Both the position numbers and the translations under genes were made by a program. The notes under the pieces are model-generated. The model saw only the letters and a list, made by a program, of their open reading frames with translations, was not told the DNA's origin and searched no databases. A stretch of DNA of 64,000 nucleotides from Candidatus Rokuibacteriota bacterium. GTDB taxonomy: Bacteria > JAUVQV01 > DATDCY01. Every line of letters starts with the position of its first letter. The stretch's first letter is position 1. Shown here in pieces: positions 11,358 to 46,028 of this stretch. The DNA lies in the NCBI GenBank assembly GCA_031406795.1, contig JANOHV010000118.1, forward strand, positions 647 through 64,646. Reading direction: 5' to 3'.

Positions 11358-12212
11358 CTACTCTTTGACGACCAGGACCGGACAGAGGGCGTAGCCGATC
11401 ACCTTCTCCGCGACGCTCCCCATGAGCAGGCGGCTCAGGCCGGTGCGGCCGTGAGAACCGGTGACGATCATCCCGACCTCCCGCTCGCGGGCGATCCGGG
11501 TTACCACCTCGTGGACGGGGCCTTCGAGCGTCACGACCGTGCAGGGGACGCCGGCGGCGTCGGCCTTCGCCTTGACGGCGGCGACGTAACCCTTCGCTTT
11601 CGCGAGGAGTTGATCGGCGACTTTCGGGGCATCGGCGTAAGCCTCGTCCGGCAGGTCGACTACCGACAGGGCGAACAACTCCCCGCCGTACGACGCCGCG
11701 ACGTTGATCGCATGGTCGGCACCCGCGTTGCTGGTGGACGACCCGTCGGTGGCGACCAGGATGCGCTTGAAGGAGAGCGCGGTGCCCTGGGGGACGACGA
11801 GGACATCGCGGTCGGTATGCCCGATGACGCGTGCCGTGACGCTGCCGATCAGCACCCGCTCGAGCCGGCGCAGGCCGCGGCGGCCCATCACGATCAGGTC
11901 GCAGCGCTCGTCGTCGGCCAGGTGCACGATCCGCTCCCAGGCCTCGCCCTCCTCGAGCACGGTCTTCAGCGGCAACCGCTCGGCTTCAGCGAGCGCCCGA
12001 GCCCCGGCCAGGATGATCTCGCCGGGTTTGCGCATTGCCTCCCGCACGTCGCCGATGCCCACCAGTTCGAGATCGCCGTCGATGCCCGGCACGACCGTGG
12101 CCGCGGTCAGCCAGCACTTCTCGTCGCGCGCCAGGGCGAAAGACTGGATCAGCGCGTTGCGCCCGGACTCCGAGCCGTCGAGCGAAACCAGGATCTTGCG
12201 ATACTTGCCCAT
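11358..12212 (-). CDS. Tandem universal stress protein (2 UspA domains)
   Basis: ORF trimmed to ATG 12212. Two units end in the USP signatures LIVMGRRGLRRLERVLIGSVTARVIGHTDRDVLVV and MIVTGSHGRTGLSRLLMGSVAEKVIGYALCPVLVV. Confidence 0.9.
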   Translation of the reverse strand: MGKYRKILVSLDGSESGRNALIQSFALARDEKCWLTAATVVPGIDGDLELVGIGDVREAMRKPGEIILAGARALAEAERLPLKTVLEEGEAWERIVHLADDERCDLIVMGRRGLRRLERVLIGSVTARVIGHTDRDVLVVPQGTALSFKRILVATDGSSTSNAGADHAINVAASYGGELFALSVVDLPDEAYADAPKVADQLLAKAKGYVAAVKAKADAAGVPCTVVTLEGPVHEVVTRIAREREVGMIVTGSHGRTGLSRLLMGSVAEKVIGYALCPVLVVKE

Positions 12213-12216
12213 GACG

Positions 12217-13308
12217 CTAGATTCTTTCCACTGCCAGCGCGCCGGCGCTCTCGCGCAGTCGCTCCTCGCGCTTGCCCTGCCACATCGCCTTGAGGACGAT
12301 GAAGGCACCGAGGCCGAGGGCGAACATCATGATCGCGAAACTCGTGTTCGAGAGCAGCTTGCTCGTCGCGGGGCTCATCTCGCCGATCAGGTGCAGCTGC
12401 GACATGTAGACCGGCAGCATCAGCGCGCGGCTGAAGAGCACCGTCACCATGATCACGCCCATCACGAGCTTGATCATGTAGGGGCGCACGTAGGTCGTGC
12501 CGATCGCGCCGAGCTGGATGCCGAAGAGCGAGCCGGCGAGGATGATCAGCGCCAGCCGGATGTCGACCATGCCGTGCAGCGCGTACTTGAACGAGCCGCC
12601 GACGCCCATCACGAAGGCGATCACCAGTTCGGTGGCCGAGGCCATCAGGCCGGGGGCGCCGAGCACATACATCATGGCGGGGACGCCGATGAAGCCGCCG
12701 ACCGCGATCGTCGCGGCGAGCATGCCGGTGGCGAATCCGAGGGGGATCGTGAAGAGCACCGAGATGCGCGCGTTGAGGGCCTTGAAGTAGACCATCGTGT
12801 ACGGGATGTTGACCGACTGCACCCAGCGGGCGATCTTCGTGAGCTTCTCCTCGTCGTTCGTGGTGCCCGCGCGGTAGCTCTTGATCGCGTCGCGCAGCAC
12901 GAAGCCGCCGACGATCGCCAGGATCACGACGAACGCGGTGCTGACGTAGAGGTTCGAGCCGGCGTCGCCGTAGGCCTTCTTGATGCCCTCCTGGATGCTG
13001 GCGCCGTAGAGCACGCCGGCCTCGGCGGAGATGCCGAGCACGACCCCGAGCTTGACGTCGACCTGGCCGTACTTGGCGCGTTTCGTCGCGCCGACGAGCG
13101 CCTTGGGGAACTTGTGGCACATGTTGCTCGCGACCGCCATCAGGCCCGGCACGCCGAGGCTCATCATCCCCGGGGTCAGCACGAAGGCGCCGCCAGAGCC
13201 GATGAAGCCGCTGACCAGCCCGCCGACGAAGCCCATCGCGAACAGGTAGAGCACGGTCCAGAGCGAGAGATCGATGAATTGGGAAACGACCGCGACGGCG
13301 TCGTGCAT
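12217..13308 (-). CDS. TauE/SafE (TSUP) family permease
   Basis: ORF 12217..13431 trimmed to ATG 13308. Multi-TM with duplicated glycine-rich motifs GFVGGLVSGFIGSGGAFVLTPGMM and AATIAVGGFIGVPAMMYVLG. Confidence 0.85.
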   Translation of the reverse strand: MHDAVAVVSQFIDLSLWTVLYLFAMGFVGGLVSGFIGSGGAFVLTPGMMSLGVPGLMAVASNMCHKFPKALVGATKRAKYGQVDVKLGVVLGISAEAGVLYGASIQEGIKKAYGDAGSNLYVSTAFVVILAIVGGFVLRDAIKSYRAGTTNDEEKLTKIARWVQSVNIPYTMVYFKALNARISVLFTIPLGFATGMLAATIAVGGFIGVPAMMYVLGAPGLMASATELVIAFVMGVGGSFKYALHGMVDIRLALIILAGSLFGIQLGAIGTTYVRPYMIKLVMGVIMVTVLFSRALMLPVYMSQLHLIGEMSPATSKLLSNTSFAIMMFALGLGAFIVLKAMWQGKREERLRESAGALAVERI

Positions 13309-13309
13309 G

Positions 13310-13555
13310 CTACTTGCCCCCCTTGCTTTTCGCGGCCTCGATGCCGAGGGCCGTCCAGAAGTTGCCGGTGAACGAGCCGTGCACGAACGAGAAGAGGAAC
13401 GCTGTCGCGATCGGCAGCAGCGCGTAGGCACCGCCCTTGCCGAAGTTCGAGTTCACCAGATCCTGCTTGAGAAAGAGCAGTGCGTACAGGCCGATCGAGA
13501 GCGCGCCCATGATGATCGCGCTGACGAGGGCTTTTTTCCTGGTTGTCGTGGCCAT
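13310..13555 (-). CDS. Small 2-TM membrane protein (TauE-associated)
   Basis: 81 aa, ATG preceded by AAGGAGA. Two hydrophobic helices. Its stop abuts the TauE start, which suggests translational coupling. Confidence 0.65.
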   Translation of the reverse strand: MATTTRKKALVSAIIMGALSIGLYALLFLKQDLVNSNFGKGGAYALLPIATAFLFSFVHGSFTGNFWTALGIEAAKSKGGK

Positions 13556-13577: not shown

Positions 13578-14219
13578 CTAGCGGGAGGTTGAAATACGGT
13601 TAACGGGCAGGCTGCTCAAAATGGTCCAGGTGCAAGACGCGCAAACCTTGAGGAATGAGGCGCACTGGTGTGCGCCGCAGTGACGAAGGGTGAAGCGCGA
13701 CGCCGCAGATGGGCCATTTTCAGCGGCCTGCCGGTCGGAGACCACTACCAGCGGGCAGGTCAAACGCTTCCAGAGGTGCGAGAGCCGCCGCTCGTCGGCG
13801 GCGCCGCAGCCGCGGTCGAGTACCCCGGCGGATTCGACGACGACGAATGAGACCTCGGGGTGCGCCCGGGTGTAGCGGACGATCTGTTCCTTGATGCAGC
13901 CGGCGCTCGAGAAGGCCCGGAAGGGTATTCCCGCCTCGGCGAGGCTCGCGAGAAACGGGGCGAGGGCGCTGCGCAGTTCCTTCTCGGGGAGGGCGCGGTC
14001 CGCGACGCACAGGACGTCGAGGCCCGCGCCGATGCGCCGGCAGGTGTTCAGGGCGTAGGTCATCGTGCGGGCCTCTCCTTCGAGTCCCCGCAGGGCGAGC
14101 AGCACGCGGCGATGCTTCCGCATCAGGCTCTGCGCGCCGCTGCGGTCGCCCTGCTCGGCGAGCGCAGCGGCTTCGAGCGCCAGCTGCGCCCGCCCGATGA
14201 CCTGCATGACCTTGTTCAT
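13578..14219 (-). CDS. USP-like (adenine-nucleotide alpha-hydrolase fold) protein; the C-terminal ~50 aa are encoded by repeat R3
   Basis: 213 aa. The core runs VLLALRGLEG...VSFVVVESAGVLD...CPLVVVSDRQ (USP-like, no ATP glycine motif seen). The N-terminus carries LEAAALAEQGDRSGAQSL. The tail RHCGAHQCASFLKVCASCTWTIL is translated repeat sequence. Confidence 0.6.
   Translation of the reverse strand: MNKVMQVIGRAQLALEAAALAEQGDRSGAQSLMRKHRRVLLALRGLEGEARTMTYALNTCRRIGAGLDVLCVADRALPEKELRSALAPFLASLAEAGIPFRAFSSAGCIKEQIVRYTRAHPEVSFVVVESAGVLDRGCGAADERRLSHLWKRLTCPLVVVSDRQAAENGPSAASRFTLRHCGAHQCASFLKVCASCTWTILSSLPVNRISTSR
13601..13728 (-). repeat. Dispersed repeat R3, long form (copy a)
   Basis: The reverse complement starts GGCCGCTGAAAATGGCCCATCTGCGGCG and ends GCGTCTTGCACCTGGACCATTTTGAGCAGCCTGCCCGTTA. 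The same termini occur at 47858-47925 (short form), 54806-54958 and 59723-59776. Confidence 0.8.
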
Positions 14220-14254: not shown

Positions 14255-14422
14255 CTAATCGGCCCGCAGCGTCAGGCGCGGCTGCGGCCGCGGACTGGGG
14301 CGTTTGGCCGCACGCTCGCCCTCACGCTGCCCGGTGAGGAGTTCGCGTGCGGTACCGTGCTCGTTTTCTTCGGCGAACGCCGCGGCCATCATCACTCGTT
14401 CGAACTTCTCGGTGATCTTCAT
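14255..14422 (-). CDS. 55-aa AFAE-motif peptide (below the ORF-track size cut-off)
   Basis: My translation is MKITEKFERVMMAAAFAEENEHGTARELLTGQREGERAAKRPSPRPQPRLTLRAD. GAGGAGG SD lies 9 nt upstream of ATG 14422, and a sigma-54 promoter lies 40 nt upstream. The motif is shared with 857..1315 and 40281..40754. Confidence 0.6.
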   Translation of the reverse strand: MKITEKFERVMMAAAFAEENEHGTARELLTGQREGERAAKRPSPRPQPRLTLRAD

Positions 14423-14460: not shown

Positions 14461-14479
14461 TTTGCAGGGGGCGTGCCAG
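14461..14479 (-). promoter_or_regulatory. Sigma-54 (-24/-12) promoter
   Basis: The minus strand reads CTGGCACGCCCCCTGCAAA. GG and GC have the canonical 12-nt register (TGGCACG-N5-TGCA). It lies about 40 nt upstream of the small ORF start. Confidence 0.7.
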
Positions 14480-14626
14480 AGGCGCTGATGAAGAGTAAAG
14501 TCCATGCAATCAATGAGATACGATGACGCGCGGCGGTCCCTGGCGAGTCGGCACCGTTGCGCGACAGCGGGCGCGAGGAAGTTACCGGCGTGCAAGTCGT
14601 TGAATCAACAGTCATAACAGCGGGTG

Positions 14627-14655
14627 TTGCAAGAACGCTGTCGTCGTTGTATTTT
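14627..14655 (+). promoter_or_regulatory. Sigma-70-like promoter candidate for the Lon/HK/RR operon
   Basis: TTGCAA, 17 nt, TATTTT; it ends 30 nt upstream of GTG 14686. Confidence 0.35.
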
Positions 14656-14685
14656 GCAATAGTGGCTTTTCCGCGGAGGTGACAG

Positions 14686-16827
14686 GTGAAGTTCTTCAGG
14701 AAAGACGGGGCAGGCGACGAAGAGCAGGACCCGACTATTCCCGAACTGCGCCTGCGCCTGGCCGCTGCGCGGTTGCCGGTCGAGGTGGAGCAGCTCGCCG
14801 ATCGGGAGCTGGGGACGCTCTCCCGCATCAATCCGGCGGCGGCGGAATTCACGATCGGCTTGAGCTATCTCGAGTATCTCGCCTCGCTTCCCTGGCAGCG
14901 CAGCACGGAAGACAACCTCGATCTCGCGCGCGCCGAGCGCATTCTGGATGAGCACCACTTCGGCCTGCGGCACGTGAAAGAGCGGATTCTCGAGCACCTG
15001 GCAATCAAAGCGCTGCGCCATCGGCGCCAGCCGCGGGTGCTCGCGGTCGACGACGACGAGACGGCGCGCCGCAACCTCGTGCTCGCGCTGGCCCGCGAGG
15101 GCTGCGAGGTCGTCACCGCGGCGAGCGGTCGCGAAGCGCTCGAGCAGTTGGAGGCGCGCGAGTTCGACGTCGTGCTCACCGACCTGCATCTCGGGCAGAG
15201 CGACGGCATGGAGCTGCTCGAGCGCACCCGGGCCCGCTGGCCCGATACGCGCGTGGTCGTCATCACCGGCTACGCCTCGATCCCGTCGGCGGTCGAGGCG
15301 GTCAAGAAGGGCGCTTTCCAGTATCTGTCCAAGCCGTTCGCGATCGAGGAGCTGCGATCGACGGTGCGGCGCGCACTCGAGGGTCGCGCGCTGCTCAAGG
15401 GGACGAAGGGCTCGGTGCTCTGCTTCGCCGGCCCGCCCGGTACCGGCAAGACTTCGGTCGGGCGGGCGATCGCGCAGGCGCTCGGGCGCTCATTCTCCCG
15501 GATCAGCCTCGGGGGGATCCGCGACGAGGCGGAGATCCGCGGCCACCGGCGCACCTACGCCGGCGCCAAGCCGGGTCGGGTGATCGAGGAGATCCGCCGG
15601 GTCGGGTCCGCCAACCCGGTACTGATGCTCGACGAACTCGACAAGCTCGGCCGCGAGGTCAAAGGCGACCCGGCCGCTGCGCTGCTCGAGGTGCTCGACC
15701 CGGAGCAGAACCGCGGCTTCCTCGACCACTATCTCGACGTGCCTTTCGATCTCTCGGGGGTGCTCTTCATCGTCACGGTCAACCTGACGGACGCCGTGCC
15801 CGAGGCGCTGCTCGACCGGCTCGAGGTGATCGAGTTCCCCGGGTACACCGAGCAGGAGAAGGCGCAGATCGCCGCGCGTTTTCTCTGCCCGAAACAGCTG
15901 CGGGAGAAGGGCCTCGGGAGCGACCAGGTGAGCTTCACGCTGGAGGCGATCGGGGTGATCATCCGCGATTACACGCGGGAGGCGGGGATCCGCGGCCTCG
16001 AACGGCGCATCGCCACCATCTGCCGCAAGATCGCCCGCGAGAGTCTCGGCGACGGCGCCCGGACCGGAGTCACCGTGACTCCCGAACGGGTGCAGGGGTG
16101 GCTCGGGCGGCGGCCGGACCGGCGCGAAGTCATGGACGGGGAGGACCGCGTCGGGGTGGCCACGGGGCTGGTGCGCACCGAGAGCGGCGGGGAGATCATC
16201 TTTGTCGAGGCGGCGAGGATGCCCGGCACCAAGGAGCTGATCATCACCGGCTCGCTCGGCGAGGTGATGCGCGAATCCGTCCAGGCGGCGCTGAGCTACC
16301 TGCGCAGCAACGCGGCGGTCTTCGGCATCGCGTCGGATTTCTTCGAGCGCCACGACCTGCACATCCACATACCGCGCGGGGCGGTCCCGAAGGATGGGCC
16401 GTCGGCCGGGCTCACGGTGCTTGCCGCGCTCGCTTCGCTGCTCACGAGGCGCCCCGCGCGCCGCGACACGGCCGCGACCGGCGAGATCACCCTCACCGGG
16501 CGCCTTCTCGCGGTCGGCGGCGTGCGCGAGAAGGTGCTCGCCGCGCGCCGGGCCGGGCTGGCGGCGGTCGTGGTGCCGGCCGCAAACCTCGCGGAAATCG
16601 AGGAGCTCGACGAGGAGACGCGGCGCGGGATCGCCATCCATACGGCGGCTTCGGCGCCCGAGGCCCTGGAACTGATCCTCCGGGAACCTGCTGGGCGGAG
16701 GGGTGGCGCGGAGGGGAGGTCTCCATCGGCGGAACGAAGTGAGTGCCCGCTCGGGGGGCATAAACACGATGGAGGTCCGCAGCGTCAGGACCCCGCAGCC
16801 CGGACGGGACCGTCATGCCCAGCCTGA
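14686..16827 (+). CDS. Atypical LonA-like ATP-dependent protease: no LAN N-domain, REC receiver inserted before the AAA+ module; last ~45 aa encoded by repeat R1
   Basis: GTG 14686 with GGAGGT SD and an in-frame TGA at 14680-14682. Lon helical region AEFTIGLSYLEYLASLPW...HFGLRHVKERILEHLAI, then REC RVLAVDDDE / VVLTDLHL / VVITGY / LSKPF. Walker A then follows (GPPGTGKTS), with DELDKLG, the Lon_C motifs PKDGPSAGL and GGVREKVLAA. Confidence 0.85.
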   Translation: MKFFRKDGAGDEEQDPTIPELRLRLAAARLPVEVEQLADRELGTLSRINPAAAEFTIGLSYLEYLASLPWQRSTEDNLDLARAERILDEHHFGLRHVKERILEHLAIKALRHRRQPRVLAVDDDETARRNLVLALAREGCEVVTAASGREALEQLEAREFDVVLTDLHLGQSDGMELLERTRARWPDTRVVVITGYASIPSAVEAVKKGAFQYLSKPFAIEELRSTVRRALEGRALLKGTKGSVLCFAGPPGTGKTSVGRAIAQALGRSFSRISLGGIRDEAEIRGHRRTYAGAKPGRVIEEIRRVGSANPVLMLDELDKLGREVKGDPAAALLEVLDPEQNRGFLDHYLDVPFDLSGVLFIVTVNLTDAVPEALLDRLEVIEFPGYTEQEKAQIAARFLCPKQLREKGLGSDQVSFTLEAIGVIIRDYTREAGIRGLERRIATICRKIARESLGDGARTGVTVTPERVQGWLGRRPDRREVMDGEDRVGVATGLVRTESGGEIIFVEAARMPGTKELIITGSLGEVMRESVQAALSYLRSNAAVFGIASDFFERHDLHIHIPRGAVPKDGPSAGLTVLAALASLLTRRPARRDTAATGEITLTGRLLAVGGVREKVLAARRAGLAAVVVPAANLAEIEELDEETRRGIAIHTAASAPEALELILREPAGRRGGAEGRSPSAERSECPLGGHKHDGGPQRQDPAARTGPSCPA
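16695..16812 (+). repeat. 118-bp dispersed repeat R1, copy B (Lon/HK junction)
   Basis: Matches 5180..5297. It provides the Lon C-terminal residues RRGGAEGRSPSAERSECPLGGHKHDGGPQRQDPAARTGP and ends 2 nt before the HK ATG at 16815. Confidence 0.9.
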
Positions 16828-18269
16828 GACGCAAGGTCTCCTATGGCTACTACGCCGTCGTGGCGCTGCTGCTGGGCCTCTCCGTTTTCGTTGTCGTCGA
16901 GCTGCGGCTGCTCGAGCGTCGCATCGTCGCCGGCGAGGCGCTTGCGGAATTCTTCGACGCCACGCTCGAGATCAGGCGCTTCGAGAAGAACTACTTCCTC
17001 TACGCCCAGGGGGAGGACCTGAACGAGAGCATGCGCTACGCCGGCCGGGCGCGTGAGCTGCTGGATCGTCACGGCGCGGCGTTCGCCGCCTTCGTCCCCG
17101 GGCCGTTGCTGGCCACGCTGCGCGACCGACTCCCCCGCTACGAGTCGCTGATGCGCCGGTACGCGGCGGCGCCGGCGGCGGCGCCCGAGCGCAAGGACCT
17201 GGAGCAGGAGGTGCGCCGCGCCGGCAAGGAGATCGTCACGCACGCCGAGGAGATCTCCGGGAGCGAGCGGCGCAGCCTGCAGGGACTGCTCGCCCGTTAC
17301 CGGCGGGGGCTGGTCGGGGCGATCGTCCTGCTCTCGGCGCTGGCGATCGCCATCGGCCAGGTCCTGGTGCGCGAGGTCGGGCGACCGCTGCGCGCCCTGG
17401 AACAGGCGCTGAACAGCGTCGCCGAGGGGCGCTACGAGCCGGTGGCGATCGGCTCGCGCGACCGCGAGATCGTCTCGCTGACCAACGCGCTCAACCGGAT
17501 GCTGCGCGAGCGCGAGCTGCACGAGCGACACCTGATCCAGTCCGAGAAACTCGCCTCGCTCGGGACGCTGCTCTCGGGGGTGGCGCACGAGCTGAACAAC
17601 CCGCTCTCGAACATCTCGACGTCGGCGCAGATCCTCGCCGAGGAGATGGGCGCCGGCGGCGGGCTCGCCGGGGAGCTGGTCGGGCAGATCGGCGAGCAGA
17701 CCGACCGCGCCCGCAACATCGTGCGCTCCCTGCTGGAGTTCTCGCGCGACCGCGAGTTCCGCAAGGAGCCGCTGCCGCTGCGCCCGCTTGTCGAGGAGAC
17801 CGTGCGTTTTCTCAAGGGGCAGATCCCGCCCGGGGTGACGGTCGAGGTGGCGGTGCCGCCCGAGGTTACGCTTCCCGGCGATCGCCAGCGCCTGCAGCAG
17901 GTCTTCCTCAACCTCGTCAAGAACGCCGTCGAGGCGGTGCCGCCGGGCGCGGGTCGCGTCGTCGTCAGCGCCCGGCGGGTGCGGCCCGGCCCGGCGCCGG
18001 AAACCGACGCGGCGCTCGTCGTGCACGCGAACGGCGGGTTGCCGGGGGGCGATGTCATCGAGATCGAGGTGCGCGACAACGGCCCGGGCATCCCGCCGGA
18101 GATCCGCAAGAAGATCTTCGACCCTTTCTTCACCACCAAGGACGTCGGCAAGGGCTCGGGGCTCGGGCTGTTCGTCGTCTACGAGATCATCGACGAGCAC
18201 GACGGCGGCATCGCCGTGGGGGAGGCCCCGGGCGGCGGGACCCTCTTCACGATCCGGCTGCCCGCGTGA
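16815..18269 (+). CDS. Two-TM periplasmic-sensing HAMP histidine kinase
   Basis: 484 aa. TM, ~150-aa helical periplasmic domain with IRRFEKNYFLY, TM, HAMP, H-box [12 protein letters not shown]-box LNLVKNAVEA, G1 DNGPGI, G2 GKGSGLGL. Confidence 0.9.
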   Translation: MPSLRRKVSYGYYAVVALLLGLSVFVVVELRLLERRIVAGEALAEFFDATLEIRRFEKNYFLYAQGEDLNESMRYAGRARELLDRHGAAFAAFVPGPLLATLRDRLPRYESLMRRYAAAPAAAPERKDLEQEVRRAGKEIVTHAEEISGSERRSLQGLLARYRRGLVGAIVLLSALAIAIGQVLVREVGRPLRALEQALNSVAEGRYEPVAIGSRDREIVSLTNALNRMLRERELHERHLIQSEKLASLGTLLSGVAHELNNPLSNISTSAQILAEEMGAGGGLAGELVGQIGEQTDRARNIVRSLLEFSRDREFRKEPLPLRPLVEETVRFLKGQIPPGVTVEVAVPPEVTLPGDRQRLQQVFLNLVKNAVEAVPPGAGRVVVSARRVRPGPAPETDAALVVHANGGLPGGDVIEIEVRDNGPGIPPEIRKKIFDPFFTTKDVGKGSGLGLFVVYEIIDEHDGGIAVGEAPGGGTLFTIRLPA

Positions 18270-18283
18270 GGGAGAGTGAGAGG

Positions 18284-19645
<1,362 letters not shown>

Positions 19646-23946: not shown

Positions 23947-23999
23947 CACTGCACGGGATTGTACCAACGAACCGCTCCCGCAGGCGTGCGGGTCTCAGT

Positions 24000-27087: not shown

Positions 27088-27093
27088 GACTCT

Positions 27094-27594: not shown

Positions 27595-27595
27595 C

Positions 27596-35254: not shown

Positions 35255-35275
35255 GAACGGCATTGTTCATGCAGC

Positions 35276-35330: not shown

Positions 35331-36542
35331 CTGCTCAGAGGGATCCGGATGGCGCTGACGGCGCTCTTCAGCCACAAGCTGCGGACGGCGCTGGCGACTC
35401 TGGGGGTGGTGATCGGGGTCTGCTCGGTGATCGTGATGGTGGCGATTGGCGAAGGCGCGCAGCGCGAGGTGCTCTCGAAGATCCAGGCGATGGGCACGGA
35501 CCTGGTGATCGTGAGCAGCGGTCAGGTCAAAGTGATCGCCGGGCGCAGGCGACAGACGGGAAATGTCACGACACTGACGATGCGGGATCTCAAGGCCGTC
35601 GGGGAGGAGGCGCGGCAGGTCCGGGCCGTCGCCCCCTCCCAGGGCCGCAAGATGCTCGTCCGGCACGAGGCGGTGAGCACGACGACGACCATCGACGGCA
35701 CGACCCGGGAGATCCTGCCGATTCGGAACCTGCGCCTGCGCAGCGGCAGGTTTTTCACCGAGGAGGAGAATCGGACCCTCCAGCGGGTCGCGGTCCTCGG
35801 GAAAACGGCCGCGGGGAACCTCTTTGACGGGCGCGATCCCGTCGGCGAGATGGTGCGGATCGGCAAGGTCACCTTCGAAGTGATCGGCGTGCTGGAGGAA
35901 AAGGGCACCGACCTGGTGGGCAACGATCAGGACGACGTGATCTTCGTGCCGGTCGACACCGCGCTGCGCCGACTCTTCAACATCACCTACATCAATACCC
36001 TGTTCATCCAGGCCGGGAGCTCCGACCGGATCGACGAGGCGGCGGCCGAAGTGGCCGCCTTGCTGCGGGAGCGACACCGGCTCGACGGGAAACCCGACGA
36101 CTTCACGGTCCAGAGCCAGACCGAGATTCTGGAGGCCGAGCGGGAGACCTCGCGGACCTTCACGAATCTGTTGAGCGCAGTCGCGGCGATCTCGCTGCTG
36201 GTCGGCGGGGTCGGCATTCTCGCGGTCATGCTGATGACGATCAAGGAGCGCACGCGGGAGATCGGCGTGCGTCGGGCGGTGGGCGCGCTGCGCCGGGACG
36301 TGCTGGTGCAGTTCGTCGTGGAGTCGCTCGTCCTGGGCGTCAGCGGGGGCGTCGTCGGGATTCTGCTGGGGATCGCACTCGCGCTCGGCGCCGCCCATTT
36401 CACGAGCTGGCCGATGAGTCTTTCCCTTCCGGCGGTGGCGGTCGCGTTCTTCTTCTCCGCGGCGGTCGGCCTGCTCTTCGGCGTCTATCCGGCCGCGAAG
36501 GCCGCGCGGCTGGACCCCATCGAAGCGTTGCGGGCCGAGTAG
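35325..36542 (+). CDS. ABC transporter permease (MacB_PCD + FtsX), copy 2
   Basis: 405 aa. MKLLRGIRMALTALFSHKLRTALATLGVVIGV, and C-terminal TREIGVRRAVGA. Confidence 0.9.
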   Translation: MKLLRGIRMALTALFSHKLRTALATLGVVIGVCSVIVMVAIGEGAQREVLSKIQAMGTDLVIVSSGQVKVIAGRRRQTGNVTTLTMRDLKAVGEEARQVRAVAPSQGRKMLVRHEAVSTTTTIDGTTREILPIRNLRLRSGRFFTEEENRTLQRVAVLGKTAAGNLFDGRDPVGEMVRIGKVTFEVIGVLEEKGTDLVGNDQDDVIFVPVDTALRRLFNITYINTLFIQAGSSDRIDEAAAEVAALLRERHRLDGKPDDFTVQSQTEILEAERETSRTFTNLLSAVAAISLLVGGVGILAVMLMTIKERTREIGVRRAVGALRRDVLVQFVVESLVLGVSGGVVGILLGIALALGAAHFTSWPMSLSLPAVAVAFFFSAAVGLLFGVYPAAKAARLDPIEALRAE

Positions 36543-37199: not shown

Positions 37200-37613
37200 T
37201 TAGAGAACCAGAACCGGGCACTGCGCCGAGCGCGCCACCCGCTCCGCGATGCTCGGGCCGAGCAGCCGCCGAAACCAGGGGAGCCGCTCGCGGCCGATCA
37301 CGATGAGGTCGCAGCGCTCCTCGGCCGCGACCGCGACGATTCGCTCCGAAATGCTGCCTTCCTCGACGCGCGACCTGACGAGGACGCGTGCATCCTCCGC
37401 GGATTGCCGCACCTCGGCGCGCACCTGCCGCTCCGCGCCGGTGAGGACCGTTTCGATATCCTTGATGCCCGTCAGCTCCAGATCGCCCTCGTTTGCGGGT
37501 AGAACCTTGAGGACGGTGGTCCAGCACCCTTCATCGCCGGCCAGTTGCAGCCCCCGCGCGAGGGCATTTCTCGATCCGTCGAGCGCGACGAGAATCCTGC
37601 GAAAGCCCCTCAT
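37200..37613 (-). CDS. Universal stress protein (single UspA domain)
   Basis: 137 aa. ILVALDGS...LIVIGRERLPWFRRLLGPSIAERVARSAQCPVLVL. Its start overlaps the upstream stop (ATGA). Confidence 0.85.
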   Translation of the reverse strand: MRGFRRILVALDGSRNALARGLQLAGDEGCWTTVLKVLPANEGDLELTGIKDIETVLTGAERQVRAEVRQSAEDARVLVRSRVEEGSISERIVAVAAEERCDLIVIGRERLPWFRRLLGPSIAERVARSAQCPVLVL

Positions 37614-38473
37614 GACTTTTTCACCACGAGCACCGGGCAGGGGGCGTCCCGGATCACCCGTTCGGCAGTGCTGCCGAGCAGCGCCTTGTCGACGCCGCGC
37701 CAGCCGCTGGTGCCCATCACCACGAGGTCATGAGCGTCTTTGCCGACCGATCTGGCGATCTCGTCGCCGCCGTGGCCCTCGCCGATCTGCGCCAGCGTGT
37801 CGATGCCGAGGGACCGTGCCAGCGCCCGTCCCTCACCGAGAATCCGCCCGGCCTCGCCGCGCAGGCTCTTCTCGACTTGGGGGGTGCGCATGAAGTCGAG
37901 CATCTCCTCGTAGCGGGGGATGACATACATGATGGTCACGGTTGCTGAATCCTGATGCGCCAGCGCGCAGGCCCGCTCCAGCGAGCGTCGGCTCTGCGCC
38001 GAGGCCTCGAAGGGCACCAGGATCGAGGTGTAGGCGCCACGGCAGGGCGCGCACGGTTTTTTCACGACGAGAACATCGACGCCGGAGTTCAGAATGACAT
38101 GGGAAGTCACGCTCCCCATCAGCAGCCGCGAGAGGCCCCGCCGGCCGTGCGTTCCCATCACGATGAGCTCCGCGCCCGTGCCGGCGGCCGCAGCCAGCAC
38201 CTCGTCGGGCGGGTCGCCTTCTCGATACAAGACCTGGGCCTCGATCCCCACATCGGTTTGGAGGCGAGCCTTCGCGGCGGAGCAGAACTCCTGCCCCTTG
38301 CGCAATCGCTGCTCGCGCATTTCGGGGGCGATGCCGAACTCTTCGGCATCGAAAAAGACCGCGTGCAGAATGGTCAGCGTCCCCTGGTGACGGCGCGTCC
38401 AGTGGGCGGCTTCGAGGAGCGCCGCCCGGCTGAATTCGGAATCGTCATAGGGTACGAGCAGATTCCGGTACAT
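37610..38473 (-). CDS. Tandem universal stress protein
   Basis: Long ORF trimmed to ATG 38473 (287 aa). LLVPYDDSE...LIVMGTHGRRGLSRLLMGSVTSHVILNSGVDVLVV and LVVMGTSGWRGVDKALLGSTAERVIRDAPCPVLVV. Confidence 0.88.
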   Translation of the reverse strand: MYRNLLVPYDDSEFSRAALLEAAHWTRRHQGTLTILHAVFFDAEEFGIAPEMREQRLRKGQEFCSAAKARLQTDVGIEAQVLYREGDPPDEVLAAAAGTGAELIVMGTHGRRGLSRLLMGSVTSHVILNSGVDVLVVKKPCAPCRGAYTSILVPFEASAQSRRSLERACALAHQDSATVTIMYVIPRYEEMLDFMRTPQVEKSLRGEAGRILGEGRALARSLGIDTLAQIGEGHGGDEIARSVGKDAHDLVVMGTSGWRGVDKALLGSTAERVIRDAPCPVLVVKKS

Positions 38474-38475: not shown

Positions 38476-39261
38476 TCAGTGCGCCCCCCCGCCCTTGCGG
38501 AAGATCAGGCCCACGCCGAACCCGGCGCCGAGGGCCATTGCGATGGAGAGCAGCCCGTAGAGGGCGCCGTTGTTCTTCGCCATCTTCGAGAGCGTCCGGA
38601 CGACGCCGACCTGTCTGACGTCGACCGGCTTGACGATCTTCTCGATCACCTTGCCGTCGCGCACCGCATACGCCGTGACGGTGTAGTCCCCCGGAGGCGC
38701 CTGGAAGGGCCAGTCGGTCTTGATGTAGTACCCCTGCTTGCCGTCCTTCGGCTCGGTCGTGATGGCGCCGACGGAACTGCCGTAGAGCTTCGAGTTCTCC
38801 TTGAATCGGATGAACTCGCCGACCCACTTCTCCCGGTCCTCCGCCGAGGCGACCGGCTCGAGCGCCAGGTGCTTGCCCAGCGCGCGGTACCCGAGGACCT
38901 CGCGATCGGCCTCCTCGGGCGTGAGAATCTGCTCGATCGGGCGGGTGCTGTAGACTTCGTAGAGATTTGGCGTCTTGTCGAAGTGCAGCGTCCCGACGTT
39001 CATCCAGAGCACGGCGGCGGTTTTCCCCTTCTCTTTCAGGGTCTCCTTGCCGTCCGGGCCGGCGATTTTGATAATCACGTCGGTGCCCGGTTCGGTCACG
39101 CCGCGGGCGCTGACGGTGCTGCCGTGGTAGAAGAAGTCGATCGTGATGTGGTCGTGGTTTGCGATCAGGGAGATTTCGGCGGCGGCGCGGCCCGCGCCGC
39201 AGAGCAGCAGCGCCGCGGCCAACGCTCCTGCGAACCACGATGAACAAACCGCAGGAGACAT
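38476..39261 (-). CDS. Secreted protein with C-terminal TM anchor (TIGR02186 / Alph_Pro_TM-like, TauE-associated)
   Basis: ORF 38476..39342 trimmed to ATG 39261, because the 5' part is REP-derived. It has a signal peptide, a beta-rich ~200-aa domain and a terminal helix LYGLLSIAMALGAGFGVGLIF. The family call is from memory. Confidence 0.55.
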   Translation of the reverse strand: MSPAVCSSWFAGALAAALLLCGAGRAAAEISLIANHDHITIDFFYHGSTVSARGVTEPGTDVIIKIAGPDGKETLKEKGKTAAVLWMNVGTLHFDKTPNLYEVYSTRPIEQILTPEEADREVLGYRALGKHLALEPVASAEDREKWVGEFIRFKENSKLYGSSVGAITTEPKDGKQGYYIKTDWPFQAPPGDYTVTAYAVRDGKVIEKIVKPVDVRQVGVVRTLSKMAKNNGALYGLLSIAMALGAGFGVGLIFRKGGGAH

Positions 39262-39283
39262 CCGGATACCTGAAATGCCGTGC

Positions 39284-39309
39284 GTAGGGGCGGGGTTCAT
39301 CCCCGCCCG
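39284..39309. repeat. REP-like GC hairpin GTAGGGGCGGGGTTCATCCCCGCCCG (copy 2)
   Basis: Identical to 5005..5030. It lies in the 77-bp gap between TauE and the downstream gene, preceded by an ATCCGGAT box. Confidence 0.85.
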
Positions 39310-39338
39310 AACGGGGAATAATCTCGTCCGATTCATGA

Positions 39339-40256
39339 TCAATGTCCTCCTGCCTGTGCCAGAAGCAATGACGGGGTGAGGGTGAGGTCGAAGACGATCT
39401 TGATGGTCACCGCCAGCACGATGCTCGCGAGAATGACCTTGAGCTGCTCCCCCTTGAGTTTCCTGCCGAAGACCGCGCCGACCTGGGCGCCAACCGTGGA
39501 GCCGAGCAGCAGCAGCACCGCGAGGATGAAGTCCACGCTGTGGTTGGTGTAGGCCTGCAGGAACGTGACCTCGATGCAGTTGAAGAGGATCTGGAAAAGA
39601 CTCGTGCCGACCACGACGTGCATCGGCATCCGCAGGATGTAGACCATCACCGGGACCATCAGGAAGCCGCCGCCGACGCCCATCACCGCGGCGAGGATGC
39701 CGACGAAGCCGCCGAAGAGGATCGGCACCAGCATCGAGTGCGTGACGTCGGACTTCGTGTACTCGGTCTGCAGCGGCAGGGACTTGAGGAAGCGGGTGAA
39801 GGCGGAATCCGGCTTGTCCTCGGTCTTTTCGGCGGTCTTCTTGCGCATGCTCTGGATGCTCTCGATGAACATGTAGGTGCCAACGCCCCCGAGCATCAGC
39901 ACGTAGGTCATCTTGATCACGAAATCCGCGTTGCCCATCGCGTGCAGGTACTTGATCCCCTGGACGCCGAGCAGCCCGCCGACGAAGCCGCCGATCAGCA
40001 GGTGCCAGCCCATCTTGAAGTCGACGTTGCCGACTCTCCAGTGGGCGTAGGTGCCCGAAGTCGACGCGGCGACGATCTGGTTCGAGTCCGTCGCGGCCGC
40101 CACCGTCGCGGGGATGCCGAACATGATCAGCAGCGGGGTCATCAGGAAGCCGCCGCCGACGCCGAAGAGCCCCGAGAGCAGGCCGACGGCGAGGCCGAGG
40201 CCCACGGGGATCAGGACGTTGATGCTTGTCAGTGCCACCGGAAGATACAAATACAT
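39339..40256 (-). CDS. TauE/SafE (TSUP) family permease
   Basis: 305 aa. GLLSGLFGVGGGFLMTPLLIMFG and ILAAVMGVGGGFLMVPVMVYIL form the duplicated TSUP signature. Confidence 0.9.
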   Translation of the reverse strand: MYLYLPVALTSINVLIPVGLGLAVGLLSGLFGVGGGFLMTPLLIMFGIPATVAAATDSNQIVAASTSGTYAHWRVGNVDFKMGWHLLIGGFVGGLLGVQGIKYLHAMGNADFVIKMTYVLMLGGVGTYMFIESIQSMRKKTAEKTEDKPDSAFTRFLKSLPLQTEYTKSDVTHSMLVPILFGGFVGILAAVMGVGGGFLMVPVMVYILRMPMHVVVGTSLFQILFNCIEVTFLQAYTNHSVDFILAVLLLLGSTVGAQVGAVFGRKLKGEQLKVILASIVLAVTIKIVFDLTLTPSLLLAQAGGH

Positions 40257-40280: not shown

Positions 40281-40754
40281 TTAGGCGATCTGCAGCTGGT
40301 TGCGCGCGATGGTCACGACCGGACGGGAGGCGGTGCGCACGAGGCGCTGCAGTTCCTTGGCGGAAACATTGCCGTCGCGCGTAATGCTGGGACTCAGAAT
40401 CACCATGTCAACGGCCCGGCTGTTGCGCAGCGCGTTGCTGATGGCGGGGACCAGATCGCCGTGCGCGGTCGTCATGCCGGCCTCCATGCCCATGCTCCGG
40501 CACTGCTCGACCATCCCCGGGTGGACCTCCAGACCCTCGGAACTGCGCGCTAATTCCGTCGCCGTTTCGTGCTCGTTCTCCTCGGCGAATGCAACGGCCG
40601 ACATCAAGTCCTCGAACCGTTGTCCAAGCCTCTTGGCCTTGACCACGAGGATGGTCAGCCCTTCCTGAAGCGTTTTCGCCAAGTCGACGGCGTAGGCCAG
40701 CCCATCGTCGCTGCTTTCGTTCTGACAGGTGACAAACAGCAGGTGTTTTTTCAC
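40281..40754 (-). CDS. USP-like protein carrying internal AFAE motif
   Basis: 157 aa, GTG start. HLLFVTCQNESSDDGLAYAVDLA...VDMVILSPS...RPVVTIAR (USP-like fold pattern), with the insert RFEDLMSAVAFAEENEHETATEL. Confidence 0.65.
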   Translation of the reverse strand: MKKHLLFVTCQNESSDDGLAYAVDLAKTLQEGLTILVVKAKRLGQRFEDLMSAVAFAEENEHETATELARSSEGLEVHPGMVEQCRSMGMEAGMTTAHGDLVPAISNALRNSRAVDMVILSPSITRDGNVSAKELQRLVRTASRPVVTIARNQLQIA

Positions 40755-40791: not shown

Positions 40792-40808
40792 AGCATTTTC
40801 GGTGCCAA
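40792..40808 (-). promoter_or_regulatory. Sigma-54 (-24/-12) promoter
   Basis: The minus strand reads TTGGCACCGAAAATGCT (TGGCAC-N5-ATGCT) in the canonical register, about 39 nt upstream of GTG 40754. An AT-rich tract lies further upstream. Confidence 0.75.
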
Positions 40809-40858
40809 TTGCTAACTAATTGAAATGTAACAAAAATATATCAACGGTGCCGGCATGC

Positions 40859-40873
40859 GTTCATAATATGAAC
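40859..40873. promoter_or_regulatory. Perfect 7+7 palindrome GTTCATA-A-TATGAAC (candidate bEBP/regulator site)
   Basis: About 55-65 bp upstream of the -24 element, separated from it by an A/T-rich, IHF-like tract. Confidence 0.4.
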
Positions 40874-41044
40874 ACCTGTCGGCTCATCTGCGGGCGGCTC
40901 GGCCGAGGGGCGAAGCGCTAATGCATTGAAAGGAAAGGATTATTTAACGAAGGCGGAGAAAGAAGTCCGACGGAGGTTGTTTTGTTTAGAATATGGACAG
41001 TGCGAACACAGGGAGAAGCCAGCGCGCAGAAGCGGACCCCTGCG

Positions 41045-42982
<1,938 letters not shown>

Positions 42983-43050
42983 GTATCGACCTCCGAAATG
43001 AGTATAGCAGGCAAATGGAAGGGAACTCGTAACCCTTGAGCGCTTCCTGG

Positions 43051-43104
43051 GCGAAGGGGTGGCGCGAAGGGGTGGTCTCCGTCGGCGGACCGCAGGGAGC
43101 TACT
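43051..43104 (+). repeat. Repeat R1, truncated copy C (5' half)
   Basis: GCGAAGGGGTGGCGCGAAGGGGTGGTCTCCGTCGGCGGACCGCAGGGAGCTAC aligns with the first ~55 nt of 5180..5297. It lies between the RR stop (43100) and the ftsH start. Confidence 0.75.
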
Positions 43105-44431
43105 CCTCCTTGAGAATCTTCCACAGGCTGGTCCGCGAGATGCCGAGGGCCGCGGAGGCCTTCGAGCGGTTGCCGCCGAGGAGTCTCACAACTCTCTCAG
43201 CATACTCCTTGACGACGGCATCGATCGGCAGGATCTTCTCCGGGTCGATGGTGTCGATCTGCAGCATTCGAATCGTGCGCGGCAGGCTTTCCGGTGCGAT
43301 GCGCCCGCCCTTCTCCAGGATGATCGCCCGCTCGATGATGTTCTCCAGCTCCCGGACGTTCCCGGGGAAACTGTAGTGATGGAAGAATTCCATGACCTCC
43401 TCCGTGAAGCCGGCGATCTTCTTGCGCGAACGGGGCAGATGCTTGTCGAGGAGGAACTGTGCGAGCGGCGCGAGATCCTCGGCGCGCTCGCGCAGAGGCG
43501 GGATGGCGATTTCCATGACGTTGAGCCGATAGTAGAGATCTTCCCGGAAACGCCCCTCCGCGATCATCTTGCGCACGTTCTGGTTGGTCGCCGCGATGAA
43601 CCGCACGTCGACGACCACCGGGCGGGTGGCGCCGACACGGTAGAATTCTCCCTCCTCGACGACCTTGAGCAGTTTCGCCTGAAGGTTGGTCGGCAGCTCT
43701 GCGATCTCGTCAAGGAAAAGGGTGCCGGTGTCGGCAATCTCCACCAGCCCGGGCTTGGCCGCGACGGCGCCGGTGAAGGCGCCTTTCTCATAGCCGAAGA
43801 GCTCGCTTGCGAGAAGGTCTTCGGTGAAGGTCGCGCAGTTCATCGACAGGAACGGCATCTGCCGCCGCCGGCCGCTGAAGTGGATGGCCTTTGCGATCAG
43901 GCTCTTGCCAACGCCCGTCTCGCCCGTGAGCAGGATGTTGACGTCGGAGTCCTTGAGTTCCCCCACCATGTCGAGGATGTGAACCATGCCCGGGCTCCGC
44001 GCGATGATCGAAATCTTCTTGTCCAGCCCCGCGAACGTGCGCAGGGCGGCGTGCTCCCGCTTCAGGGTCTTCTGTTGCGCGATCTTGCCGACCTTGAGCA
44101 GCAGTTCGTCGAGGTCGAAGGGCTTGGTGACGTAGTCGCTGGCGCCCCGGCGCATTGCGTCGACAGCGGCGCTGATGCTGCCGTAGCCGGTGATCAGAAT
44201 CACCTCGGTCTGCGGGTGCTGTTCGCGGATTGTCTCGAGCAGTTCGAGCCCGGTGCGGCCGGGCATCTTGATGTCGCTGATCACCAGGTCGAAGGTGCCT
44301 TGTTCGAAGCGCCGCAGCGCTTCGGCGCCGTCGGCGGCGCCGACGACCCGATACCCTTCCTCGGCGAGGGTTTCCAAAATGTTGTTGAGCGTGATCTGCT
44401 CGTCCTCGGCGACAAGAATCCGCAAGGCCAT
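43100..44431 (-). CDS. Sigma-54-dependent response regulator (NtrC family)
   Basis: ORF trimmed to ATG 44431. REC ILVAEDE / [13 protein letters not shown]+ [37 protein letters not shown]. Confidence 0.9.
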
Positions 44432-44447
44432 GCCAGTGCCCCCTCTG

Positions 44448-46028
44448 TCAGACGGCGCGACAGGAGCCGGCGGCCCCACCCGCCGGCCCGCCCGTCGGCA
44501 GGGCGATGACGAAGGTCGTCCCAACCCCGTCGGCGATCTCGGCCCGGATCGAGCCGCCGTGCTTCTGGATGATGTTGAACACAATAGCCAGGCCGAGGCC
44601 GGTCCCCTTGTCCTTGGTCGTGAAGAATGGCTCGAACATCTTTTCGAGAGTCTCGCGGGACATTCCGTCGCCGGTGTCCGATACCCGGATCACCACGCGG
44701 CCATCCTCCTCGTCGGCGTGGATGGTCAGTTCGCCGGCCCCCGCCATGGCATCGACCGCGTTGGCGAAGAGGTTCAGGAAGACCTGCTCGAGCTGTTCGG
44801 GATCGACGCAGACGATGATCTCCGCCGGGATCAGGGTGAGCTGCAGCCGGACCCGGCCGACGTCGCGGGCGCGCTCGAGCCGGGCCCAGGCGCCGCCGAC
44901 CAGGCCCCGCAGTTCGACGAAGCGCATGCTCGGCTCGCGACCGCGCGCGAATCCGAGAAGGTCGCTGACGATGGTCTTGACGCGCATCGTCTCGCCGAAG
45001 ATGTCGTTCAGCCCCCGTTTGAGGAATTCCGGGCCGGAGTCGCCGGATTTTTTCAATAGCCGCTGCGCGGTGGTGTAGATGTTGCTCAGCGGGTTGTTCA
45101 ATTCATGGGCGACGCCGGCGGCCAGGGTCCCGATCGCGGCCAGCTTCTTGCTCTGGAGCAGCTCCTTCTCCCGGGCCAGGAGTTGCTCCTCCATGATGTT
45201 GAACGTGCGGATCAGCGTCTCGACCTCGTCGGCGCGACCGGCGCCTGCGGCGACGGGCAGCGGTGCGAAGTGCCCGGCCCCGGTCCTCTCGACGACCGCG
45301 GTCAACAGCCGCAGACGCTGGACGACGCTTCCGGTGATATAGAGCAGGGTGCCGAAGCCGACCACGATGAAAAGGGGGAAGACGACGAGGATGGCGGTGC
45401 GCGAAACGGCGATGGATCTCTCGACGCGCGCACGGGCGTCCTTGTCGATCGCCTCGGTCGCCCCAAGGATGATCTCGCCGCTTCTGCGCAGCGCGGCGAT
45501 GCTCGCCTCAAGTTCGCGCAGCACGGCGATGAACCGCCGGTCCCGGCCCATCCCGAGGGACTGCTGCAGGTAGTTCTGACTCACGAGGGGTTTGTCCAAG
45601 AGGTTGGCTTCGATCAGATCGCTGACGCGGGCGTACGCCGGGTCGGGCTTGAGGGCCGCGGACTCGTCGAGCGCCTCGTCCAAGAGCGCAGCGATGCCGC
45701 CGAAGTGCTCGCGATACACGGCGAGTTGGGCGCGAAGGTCCGGCACTTGAGTCGAGCGGTCGGCAGGGATGCCGACGAGAATCTGCTCCAGGTCGGCGAT
45801 GGTTTCGTGGATCGCGCGGGCCTCGCCCTGCTGGTTGGAGACGTAGAGCAGGAAGTTCTTCTCGAGACGGCGCAGCTGCAGCGATCTGCTGCGGATGGTG
45901 TCGGCCAACTCGAGGAAGACCGTCTCCTTCTTGATCTCGACGAAGTTCAAGTAGAGGAACGCGGACAAAAGCGCGATAATGAAGGCGCTGAGGAGGAAGC
46001 TCAGCACGATCTTCTTCTTGAGAGACAT
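44448..46028 (-). CDS. Two-TM HAMP histidine kinase, paralogue of 16815..18269
   Basis: 526 aa. The periplasmic helical domain has [11 protein letters not shown] (compare IRRFEKNYFLY). H-box [14 protein letters not shown] is identical in both kinases. N-box [11 protein letters not shown]1 DTGDGM, G2 GTGLGL. Confidence 0.9.

Follow-up and report, generated by a model that had tools for sequence, protein, structure and literature searches.

Two loci in a 64,000-nt stretch of a Candidatus Rokuibacteriota genome (GenBank assembly GCA_031406795.1, contig JANOHV010000118.1, positions 647–64,646; hereafter the window) each place an AAA+ protease gene beside the genes of a histidine kinase and a sigma-54-dependent response regulator, next to an operon for a TauE permease and universal stress proteins (USPs). 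Are they one functional system in two versions, with Lon swapped for FtsH, as a sequence-only reading of the window had proposed? TSUP/TauE permeases are among the commonest and least understood bacterial transporters, and the role of USPs is still vague. Our comparison makes it likely that the loci are two old paralogous signal-to-transport modules: Locus 2 is of the kind described in Desulfovibrio vulgaris Hildenborough (DvH), Locus 3 is of a protease-free kind into which an FtsH gene has been inserted, and a third, sigma-54-independent relative lies at the left edge of the window.

Sequence comparison establishes the parts list, the operon structures, the footprints of promoters and activator sites, and the co-divergence of regulators with their operons. 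The genes of the window (~67% GC) were checked by listing of open reading frames (ORFs), translation, and Pfam and NCBIfam scans. The genes and domains named in the sequence-only reading, both −24/−12 elements, the motifs shared by the kinases and the copies of repeat R1 were all found again where it had placed them (ORFs, Pfam and motif scans). Catalytic and phospho-acceptor residues read as intact.

In Locus 2, three overlapping genes on the forward strand encode a receiver-fused Lon, REC-Lon (14686–16827; Pfam Response_reg, AAA, Lon_lid and Lon_C), a histidine kinase with two transmembrane (TM) segments, a periplasmic domain, HAMP, HisKA and HATPase (16815–18269; Pfam), and a REC-sigma54-HTH_8 activator, or bacterial enhancer-binding protein (bEBP), with an intact GAFTGA (18266–19645; Pfam). 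Five genes diverge from them on the reverse strand. The first is a conserved small ORF for a 55-aa peptide (KFERVMMAAAFAEENEHGTAREL...LRAD; 14255–14422) carrying the AFAE motif. It is followed by a 213-aa USP-like protein without a Pfam hit (13578–14219), whose N-terminal AFAE motif is degenerate and which has a C-terminal extension of ~45 aa relative to its homologues of ~165 aa; in these the N-terminal AFAE motif is clear and the sequence ends at CPLVVV.... The third gene encodes a conserved 81-aa protein with two TM segments (13310–13555), recognized from its translation and from 83-aa homologues that hold the same position in loci L083, L085 and L087; a search returned 241 homologues. The fourth encodes a TauE/TSUP permease of 363 aa (12217–13308; Pfam TauE, E 2e-34), 77–82% identical to proteins of Nitrospirota loci, and the fifth a tandem USP (11358–12212; Pfam Usp in two stretches, E 2.5e-61), in which both domains retain the ATP motif G-x2-G-x9-G-S as read from the sequence.

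Locus 3 is co-linear on the reverse strand throughout. A histidine kinase (44448–46028) and a sigma-54 enhancer-binding response regulator with an intact GAFTGA (43100–44431), both assigned by Pfam, are followed by FtsH (41045–42982; Pfam; TIGR01241, 751.7 bits against a cutoff of 600), which carries HEAGH (HEXXH) and GAPGTGKT (Walker) motifs and is apparently complete and functional. The target operon begins with a 157-aa protein of degenerate USP fold that contains the AFAE motif (40281–40754; Pfam Usp below cutoff). The next gene encodes a TauE/TSUP permease of 305 aa (39339–40256; Pfam, E 3.9e-52); the Locus 2 and Locus 3 permeases reach 119.7 and 177.7 bits against PF01925 (TauE/SafE, TSUP), whose cutoff is 32.6, and both match over the full length. 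The protein described in the sequence-only reading as secreted or anchored is Alph_Pro_TM (PF09608, E 1.1e-52). Its ORF spans 38476–39342, and the true start is probably 39261, after a hairpin resembling a repetitive extragenic palindrome (REP), which gives a likely extent of 38476–39261. It has a signal peptide and a C-terminal TM segment, and is the usual partner of TauE in operons of the Locus 3 type. A tandem USP with intact ATP motifs (37610–38473) and a single-domain USP (37200–37613), both assigned by Pfam, complete the operon.

The regulators of the two loci are related to each other. The two kinases have in common the periplasmic motif LEIRRFEKNYFLY and an H-box motif, and the loci are 29% identical in their kinases (full length), 44% in their bEBPs and 28% in their TauE proteins. 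The AFAE peptide is 59% identical to residues 42–68 of the 157-aa protein. Species-representative genomes were scanned for the 157-aa protein (165 homologues, nearly all from uncultured Nitrospirota/Thermodesulfovibrionales), which gave 79 loci, and the window proteins were compared with all loci by tblastn.

Loci with an operon like that of Locus 3 (L3 type) come mostly from Nitrospirota metagenome-assembled genomes (MAGs), with some from Rokubacteria relatives. The closest, L025, belongs to a Candidatus Rokubacteria MAG (92% identical), and a second near relative is L001 (GCA_041643095.1). The target order (AFAE gene, TauE, Alph_Pro_TM, tandem USP, USP) is kept in 54 of the 62 evaluable loci, and in 7 more the single USP is relocated to the operon front. 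In 38 of 49 loci the operon is preceded, on the same strand, by a kinase and activator of the Locus 3 type, the kinase orthologues being 46–60% and the bEBP orthologues 62–75% identical. Between the window and Nitrospirota MAGs (L003–L082), L3-type TauE is 78–88% (mostly 82–88%) identical, as against 44–75% for the neighbouring genes. The names of these MAGs suggest ~42–52% GC, compared with 67% here. Such identity points to unusually strong constraint, or to recent transfer, for a membrane permease.

Locus 2, too, has counterparts (L2 type). Loci found with REC-Lon as a seed (64% identical, Nitrospirota MAGs) reproduce it gene for gene in three of three cases: a peptide of 54–60 aa, a ~165-aa protein, an 83-aa protein, a 360-aa TauE and a tandem USP diverge from REC-Lon, kinase and activator. 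Of three loci seeded with the 81-aa protein, one has Lon, another has an unrelated 148-aa protein where Lon would be, and the third is a co-linear variant. The small AFAE ORF keeps its position in L025, L061, L083–L087, L090 and L091, and the overlapping order of REC-Lon, kinase and activator recurs in L083–L087 and L090. Kinase orthologues (43–53% identical) lie beside L2-type operons, and bEBP orthologues (68–72%) form a clade of their own, always divergent from such operons. When both locus sets are pooled, Lon is present in 8 and absent from 6 of the 14 divergent L2-type modules, so that REC-Lon is a recurrent but optional part of this type.

The sequence-only reading had called for a phylogeny of the two kinase–regulator pairs, and this was obtained for the activators. 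In a neighbour-joining tree of 87 activators from all loci, the two window bEBPs fall in separate clades, each following its operon type, that of Locus 3 tracking the L3-type operon; a further clade goes with the co-linear variant that drives an L2-type TauE. Since the clades follow operon type, the duplication would predate the divergence of Rokubacteria and Nitrospirota, or any transfer between them, and each regulator would have diverged together with its target. In 18 of 82 loci an L2-type TauE operon lies less than 10 kb from the L3-type operon, and in L025 the types of Locus 2, Locus 3 and the third relative, Locus 1, are contiguous. The supra-operonic pattern therefore reads as a cluster of TauE modules and not as a protease-centred unit, with Locus 3 as an old, separate paralogue: a protease-free sister module common in Thermodesulfovibrionia and Rokubacteria. 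Further Nitrospirota module variants were seen in L028, L035, L050, L057 and L079; in one variant the TauE is of a third type (~30% identical) and the AFAE peptide is encoded last in the operon, and in another TauE lies upstream of the AFAE protein.

The modules also share their predicted mode of transcription. A motif scan places the −24/−12 element of the Locus 2 target operon (TGGCACGCCCCCTGCA) at 14463–14478 and that of Locus 3 (TGGCACCGAAAATGCT) at 40792–40807, both on the reverse strand. Just five −24/−12 matches with at most one mismatch occur in the 64 kb, these two included, and both are intergenic, correctly oriented and ~40 nt ahead of the first gene. Phylogenetic footprinting backs both promoters. 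Six orthologous L2-type intergenic regions align on a TGGCAC-N5-xTG(C/A) element before the peptide gene; towards Lon, no −24/−12 element was found in the Locus 2 intergenic region, as in DvH. Of 71 distinct L3-type loci, 66 have a GGCA(C/T)-N5-xTGC element 26–46 nt ahead of the first gene, scores of 8 or more being reached in 8.5% of random windows.

Each promoter is accompanied by its own candidate activator sites (upstream activating sequences, UAS), which usually lie ~70–200 nt from a sigma-54 promoter. Those of Locus 2 are ATTGCAAAATACAAC and the half-site CTTGCAAC, beside the Lon start (14626–14660, reverse strand). The pattern RTTGCAWWWTACAAC with an xTGCAAC half-site is conserved in L025, L083, L085 and L087, L061 has GTTGCAC-N-TGCAAC, and the conserved site reads RTTGCA-N3-TACAAC (15 bp) with TGCAAC half-sites. 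Of the 72 L3-type loci, 45 have an imperfect palindrome of 17 bp, TGTTCATATTnTRAACR (1.9% in control windows), usually in two copies at ~−120 and ~−203 to −250 from the start codon. The window copies, on the reverse strand, are a distal TGTCCATATTCTAAACA (40983–40999) and a proximal TGTTCATATTATGAACG (40858–40874). Between UAS and promoter, on the same strand, lies a site resembling that of integration host factor (IHF; TTTCAATTAGTTA, 40813–40825), and a WATCAA-N4-TTR element is present at the same place in many L3-type loci. Dependence on sigma-54 is further suggested by the activators themselves, both of which have an intact GAFTGA, Sigma54_activat and HTH_8, together with the conserved predicted UAS. 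Scans of the window for sigma-70 promoters and terminators gave counts at chance level and did not help to place the operon ends.

In the sequence-only reading the AAA+ protease is an obligatory core of one system, with Lon or FtsH doing the same job. Within the window there is reason to think so: at both loci a protease gene lies between or beside the two-component genes and the target operon, FtsH follows the bEBP by 117 nt on the same strand, so that co-transcription is possible, and the arrangement is retained in L001. The wider sample makes this very unlikely. FtsH lies between regulator and target in L001 and L002 only (1 of 49 evaluable L3-type loci), and is missing from L025, the 92%-identical Rokubacteria relative, where the activator ends 284 nt before the AFAE gene. 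It has no receiver domain, unlike REC-Lon, and REC-Lon is itself missing from the six L2-type modules noted above. The whole L3 regulatory region, both UAS included, is found downstream of FtsH and is laid out as in FtsH-free genomes; because all Locus 3 control elements are downstream of its stop codon, FtsH was inserted upstream of an intact control region. We therefore take it for a recent lineage-specific insertion that is not part of the L3-type system.

A late insertion could since have been recruited, FtsH being co-expressed with the Locus 3 kinase and activator and serving quality control or turnover of TauE and Alph_Pro_TM. FtsH is a membrane-protein protease, the genes share a strand and a short gap in which a terminator-like site was not found, and the arrangement is common to the window and L001 even though these proteins are only 82–92% identical between them. 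This argument is one of gene position, however, and the bEBP/FtsH junction is filled by REP-like repeats, namely the R1 core in the window and the D14 hairpin in L001, suggesting that it is a rearrangement scar; we judge recruitment unlikely, if less so than an obligatory role. Mere chance, by which unrelated stress genes and two-component systems would have come together in a signalling-rich genome, might be invoked in view of the many other kinases and regulators in the window. It is refuted by the comparative data, in which dozens of loci from two phyla retain the order, the orientation, the promoter and the UAS, and deserves next to no credence. The preferred account thus remains that of two paralogous TauE modules, of which one has an optional REC-Lon and the other a recently inserted FtsH.

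The proposal of one functional system in two versions is accordingly supported in part. Gene neighbourhoods are conserved for both modules in related genomes, each module as a unit and the two often adjoining, which agrees with the claim that the neighbourhood is not fortuitous. The claim that each locus couples a paralogous kinase–bEBP pair to a sigma-54 promoter and then to an AFAE protein, TauE and USPs also stands. As a module component the protease survives for the L2 type (REC-Lon, 8 of 14) and not for the L3 type; the exchange of Lon for FtsH fails, FtsH being confined to the closest relatives L001 and L002, and so does the role given to R1.

Locus 2 belongs to a kind that has already been described. 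Rajeev et al. (2011) reported in DvH a three-component system consisting of DVU3303, a response regulator 'containing a lon protease', the kinase DVU3304 and the sigma-54 regulator DVU3305 (PMC3333781). DVU3303 is described as 'ATP-dependent protease La, truncation' with a response regulator domain, DVU3305 binds between DVU3302 and DVU3303 and controls DVU3302–3298 (hypothetical, membrane and UspA proteins), and both operons rise at high pH, on heat shock and in stationary phase (PMC3333781). The published DVU3305 motif, GTTGCGAATGCAAC, is GTTGC-N4-GCAAC (PMC3333781); its half-sites resemble those of the conserved Locus 2 site, whose spacing differs by 1 bp. Kazakov et al. (2015) gave the regulon as 'general stress response, transmembrane transport' and marked DVU3303–3305 as being without a sigma-54 promoter (PMC4641369). 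In the study of Trotter et al. (2023), DVU3303–3305 have cofitness >0.9, and DVU3299, the 'putative anion transporter' of the target operon, is important under chlorate stress (PMC10102598). The system has been studied by DNA affinity purification (DAP-chip) and by barcoded transposon sequencing (RB-TnSeq) (PMC3333781, PMC10102598).

Like the DvH system, Locus 2 has a truncated Lon with a receiver, then a kinase, then a sigma-54 activator. Both have a divergent five-gene operon, with genes for three small hypothetical proteins, a membrane transporter and a UspA protein, and a sigma-54 promoter on the target operon alone. The activator sites have similar GTTGC/GCAAC half-sites but differ in spacing (15 bp here, 14 bp in DvH). 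Unlike it, Locus 2 is found in a Rokubacteria-like host of another phylum with 67% GC, and its Lon and 213-aa ORFs are lengthened by repeat insertions. The DvH papers mention neither the AFAE motif nor a second paralogous module. The architecture of Locus 2 is hence known, while Locus 3, the clustering of modules and the AFAE hairpin are new as variants or details.

Several observations weigh against the paralogous-module account. The case is one of sequence comparison in an uncultured Rokubacteria-like MAG. The likeness of Locus 2 to the DVU genes is one of architecture and a similar binding motif, not of aligned proteins, and among the best 120 of the 241 matches to the 81-aa protein there is no Desulfovibrio, all being metagenomic or from Nitrospirota/Rokubacteria. 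Nitrospirota promoters of the L2 type read TTGA, not TTGC, at −12; no UAS was found at the threshold used in 27 of the 72 L3-type loci; and rpoN does not lie within the 64-kb window.

REC-Lon itself is a LonA without the N-terminal substrate domain, in which the receiver is inserted just before the AAA+ module. Response_reg matches at residues 118–227, Pfam finds no LON N-domain, and TIGR00763 matches in two stretches around the receiver. The receiver Asp, Walker A/B and the Ser-Lys dyad are all present as read from the sequence. The family is large and consists of ~665-aa proteins with the same domain set. The C-terminal ~45 aa of the window protein are encoded by repeat R1, its homologues having ~665–675 aa. 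At the domain level the receiver matches the models of CpdR and RssB, the adaptor response regulators that control proteolysis with ClpXP in Caulobacter and E. coli, respectively. Like them, REC-Lon would couple a receiver domain to an AAA+ protease; unlike them, its receiver is fused into the protease, replacing the substrate-binding N-domain, and there is no adaptor.

The TauE–Alph_Pro_TM pair of Locus 3 is likewise known in outline: TIGR02186 (PF09608) is named 'transmembrane protein co-occurring with sulfite exporter TauE/SafE', and Locus 3 has the pair in the same order. The two proteins are more abundant during thiosulfate disproportionation in Dissulfuribacter thermophilus (PMC13490349), and a literature search by the names TIGR02186, Alph_Pro_TM and PF09608 found nothing. 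Unlike the known pair, that of Locus 3 shares a sigma-54 operon with genes for an AFAE/USP-like protein and for three USP domains and comes with a dedicated kinase and activator; its Alph_Pro_TM scores 84 bits against the TIGR02186 cutoff of 255, as a distant branch of the family.

The element common to these operons is the AFAE motif, which no Pfam or NCBIfam model covers in scans of the window proteins. Alignments give the consensus (F/L)Exx(M)xA(V/A)x(F)AE(E/A)(G/N)Exx(T)AR. An AlphaFold (AF2) model gives the 157-aa protein a USP-like alpha/beta fold (pLDDT 70.8) and places the motif in the region of helix alpha2, as a helix (43–58), a short turn and a second helix (62–70). The top 19 Foldseek matches of this model in the PDB are all USPs (TM-score 0.44–0.64). 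The protein reaches 18.6 bits against Pfam Usp (PF00582), below the 24-bit gathering cutoff, and has no NCBIfam match, and its family has lost the USP ATP motif G-x2-G-x9-G-(S/T), which is replaced by LSPSITxxGNxSxxELxRLVRTASRP. L2-type operons encode two copies of the motif, one being the free peptide and the other lying at the N-terminus of the ~165-aa USP-like protein.

A small hidden Markov model (HMM) of the motif, run over 88 sequences, returned 138 ORFs, all on the operon strand. Of the 130 evaluable ORFs, 121 are followed by a TauE gene within 1.5 kb (median 60 nt). For most of the other nine, TauE precedes the ORF within the operon, and for four no TauE was found on that strand. AFAE is thus, in its modelled form, a conserved helical hairpin, almost always in a TauE operon. 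That the free peptide might be confined to Lon-bearing loci is ruled out by L006, L008 and L059, which have the peptide and no Lon.

An unlooked-for match of the HMM lies in Locus 1 (window 1–3527, reverse strand), a third TauE module without a sigma-54 activator. Its response regulator (857–1315) ends in EKVERVMSAIAFAEGGDIDDAKKIF, directly before the third TauE gene, so that the motif occurs in three forms: on its own in the small peptide, within the degenerate USP fold, and joined to a receiver. The receiver–AFAE fusion is a conserved family, as a search of 1.8 billion representatives shows; the Locus 1 protein is on record with a 152-aa start, not as the 177-aa version. In order, Locus 1 comprises a HAMP kinase (2430–3527), a receiver (2051–2437), a 217-aa protein with an H-box-like HELNNRL (1411–2064), the REC-AFAE fusion and TauE (1–888), which is cut by the window edge and has 337 aa in L088.

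Given how strictly AFAE is tied to TauE operons, and that it can be fused to a receiver, the most economical guess is that it regulates the transporter or the circuit. We tentatively suggest, as a possibility that we do not favour, that AFAE, roughly (K/R)(F/M)Exx(M/L)xA(A/V)x(F/Y)AE(E/A)GExxTAR(E/Q)(I/L), is a portable regulatory helix-turn-helix hairpin dedicated to TauE/TSUP, which would act directly on the permease or feed back on the kinase or activator. If so, phosphorylation of the receiver-fused form would directly control the activity of the transporter, and the REC-Lon branch could determine how long the hairpin protein persists. A USP that modulates a transporter has a precedent in TeaD of the teaABCD operon, which acts on the TRAP transporter TeaABC of Halomonas elongata (PDB 3hgm). 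Like TeaD, the 157-aa protein is encoded in a transporter operon, and 3hgm is among its top structural matches; unlike TeaD, it goes with another transporter family and has lost the ATP motif that TeaD uses, and a corresponding functional link is conjectural.

Taken together, the parts suggest the following circuit. The membrane kinases, with their related periplasmic sensor domains, may sense an envelope or periplasmic signal, and each would phosphorylate the NtrC-type activator of its module. The activator would bind the module-specific upstream sites, in Locus 3 with the aid of an IHF-like bend, and open the sigma-54 promoter, which would drive the TauE/TSUP anion permease, a small membrane partner (the 81-aa two-TM protein or Alph_Pro_TM), ATP-type USPs and one or two AFAE-hairpin proteins. 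In the Locus 2 type the same kinase probably also phosphorylates the receiver of REC-Lon, adding a branch of regulated proteolysis. The permease may export a stress-related oxyanion; a sulfite- or chlorate-like substrate is suggested by the family name, the chlorate phenotype in DvH and the abundance of TauE/Alph_Pro_TM in Dissulfuribacter. USPs and AFAE proteins might act on the transporter as modulators.

The Desulfovibrio three-component system would then be one of at least three paralogous TauE modules that are clustered in Nitrospirota and Rokubacteria. Each module has a kinase, an activator and a DNA site of its own, and the promoter and operator sequences can now be tested. The AFAE hairpin is a candidate transporter-linked regulatory peptide and the receiver-fused Lon a compact model of phosphorylation-gated proteolysis; both are open to study in D. 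vulgaris, where genetics exist.

Repeat R1 occurs on the forward strand at the Lon/kinase junction (16681–16812), which is 92% identical to a copy at 5166–5297, and as a core at the bEBP/FtsH junction (43048–43099, forward strand, 88% identical); none of 100 shuffles gave a match. The copies at both protease/two-component junctions are therefore real. The additional copy, however, precedes an unrelated PPDK_N gene, and R1 was not found at the DNA level in any related locus, from which it follows that it is not part of the system. R1-derived tails occur in some close Lon homologues, and R1 is a lineage-limited interspersed repeat. As Rfam at the gathering threshold and a tRNA scan found nothing in the whole window, it is not a known RNA; a cis-regulatory RNA was considered and dropped, the fold being no more stable than those of shuffles (z −0.89) and the orientation to flanking genes being variable.

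A GC-rich REP-like hairpin (GGGCGGGG-ATGAA-CCCCGCCC) lies at gene junctions at 5001–5031, at 39280–39310, inside the Locus 3 operon between TauE and Alph_Pro_TM, and in a weaker form at 8028–8058. In L001 copies occur at 7697–7722 and 11445–11471, one of them at the activator/FtsH junction. The arms of a 41-nt inverted repeat pair (13602–13642 and 47884–47924) are 85% complementary. As the first arm falls in the 3' extension of the 213-aa ORF, this ORF too may have been lengthened by a small insertion. These repeats are elements of this lineage, similar to REPs or to miniature inverted-repeat transposable elements (MITEs), which mark gene junctions, possibly as rearrangement scars, and are not parts of the system.

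The R1 copy at 5166–5297 precedes a block consisting of a PPDK_N/PEP-utilizer protein (5341–7884) and DUF1847 (7917–8828). In L001, as in ~20 Nitrospirota loci, the L3-type operon is followed at a distance of a few kb by genes for a kinase, a receiver and a PPDK_N homologue (~36% identical; 16025–20362 in L001); the window has this block elsewhere. Beyond Locus 2 are a third sigma-54 activator (21360–22685, reverse strand), a kinase (22687–23967) and a Nitro_FeMo-Co protein, similar to dinitrogenase cofactor-binding proteins (24000–24380). The stretch of ~25500–30000 has a lower GC content (58–64%) and contains a type I methylase, HsdM (25525–26949), and a UPF0175 antitoxin-like gene (27596–27895); it probably represents an island inserted between the modules of Locus 2 and Locus 3, which are adjacent in L025. 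From 29980 to 36542 the forward strand carries an envelope-stress and efflux cluster, with a zf-HC2 anti-sigma-like protein, a CpxP/Spy-like Metal_resist protein, an outer-membrane efflux protein, an HlyD-family adaptor, an ABC ATPase and two MacB/FtsX permeases.

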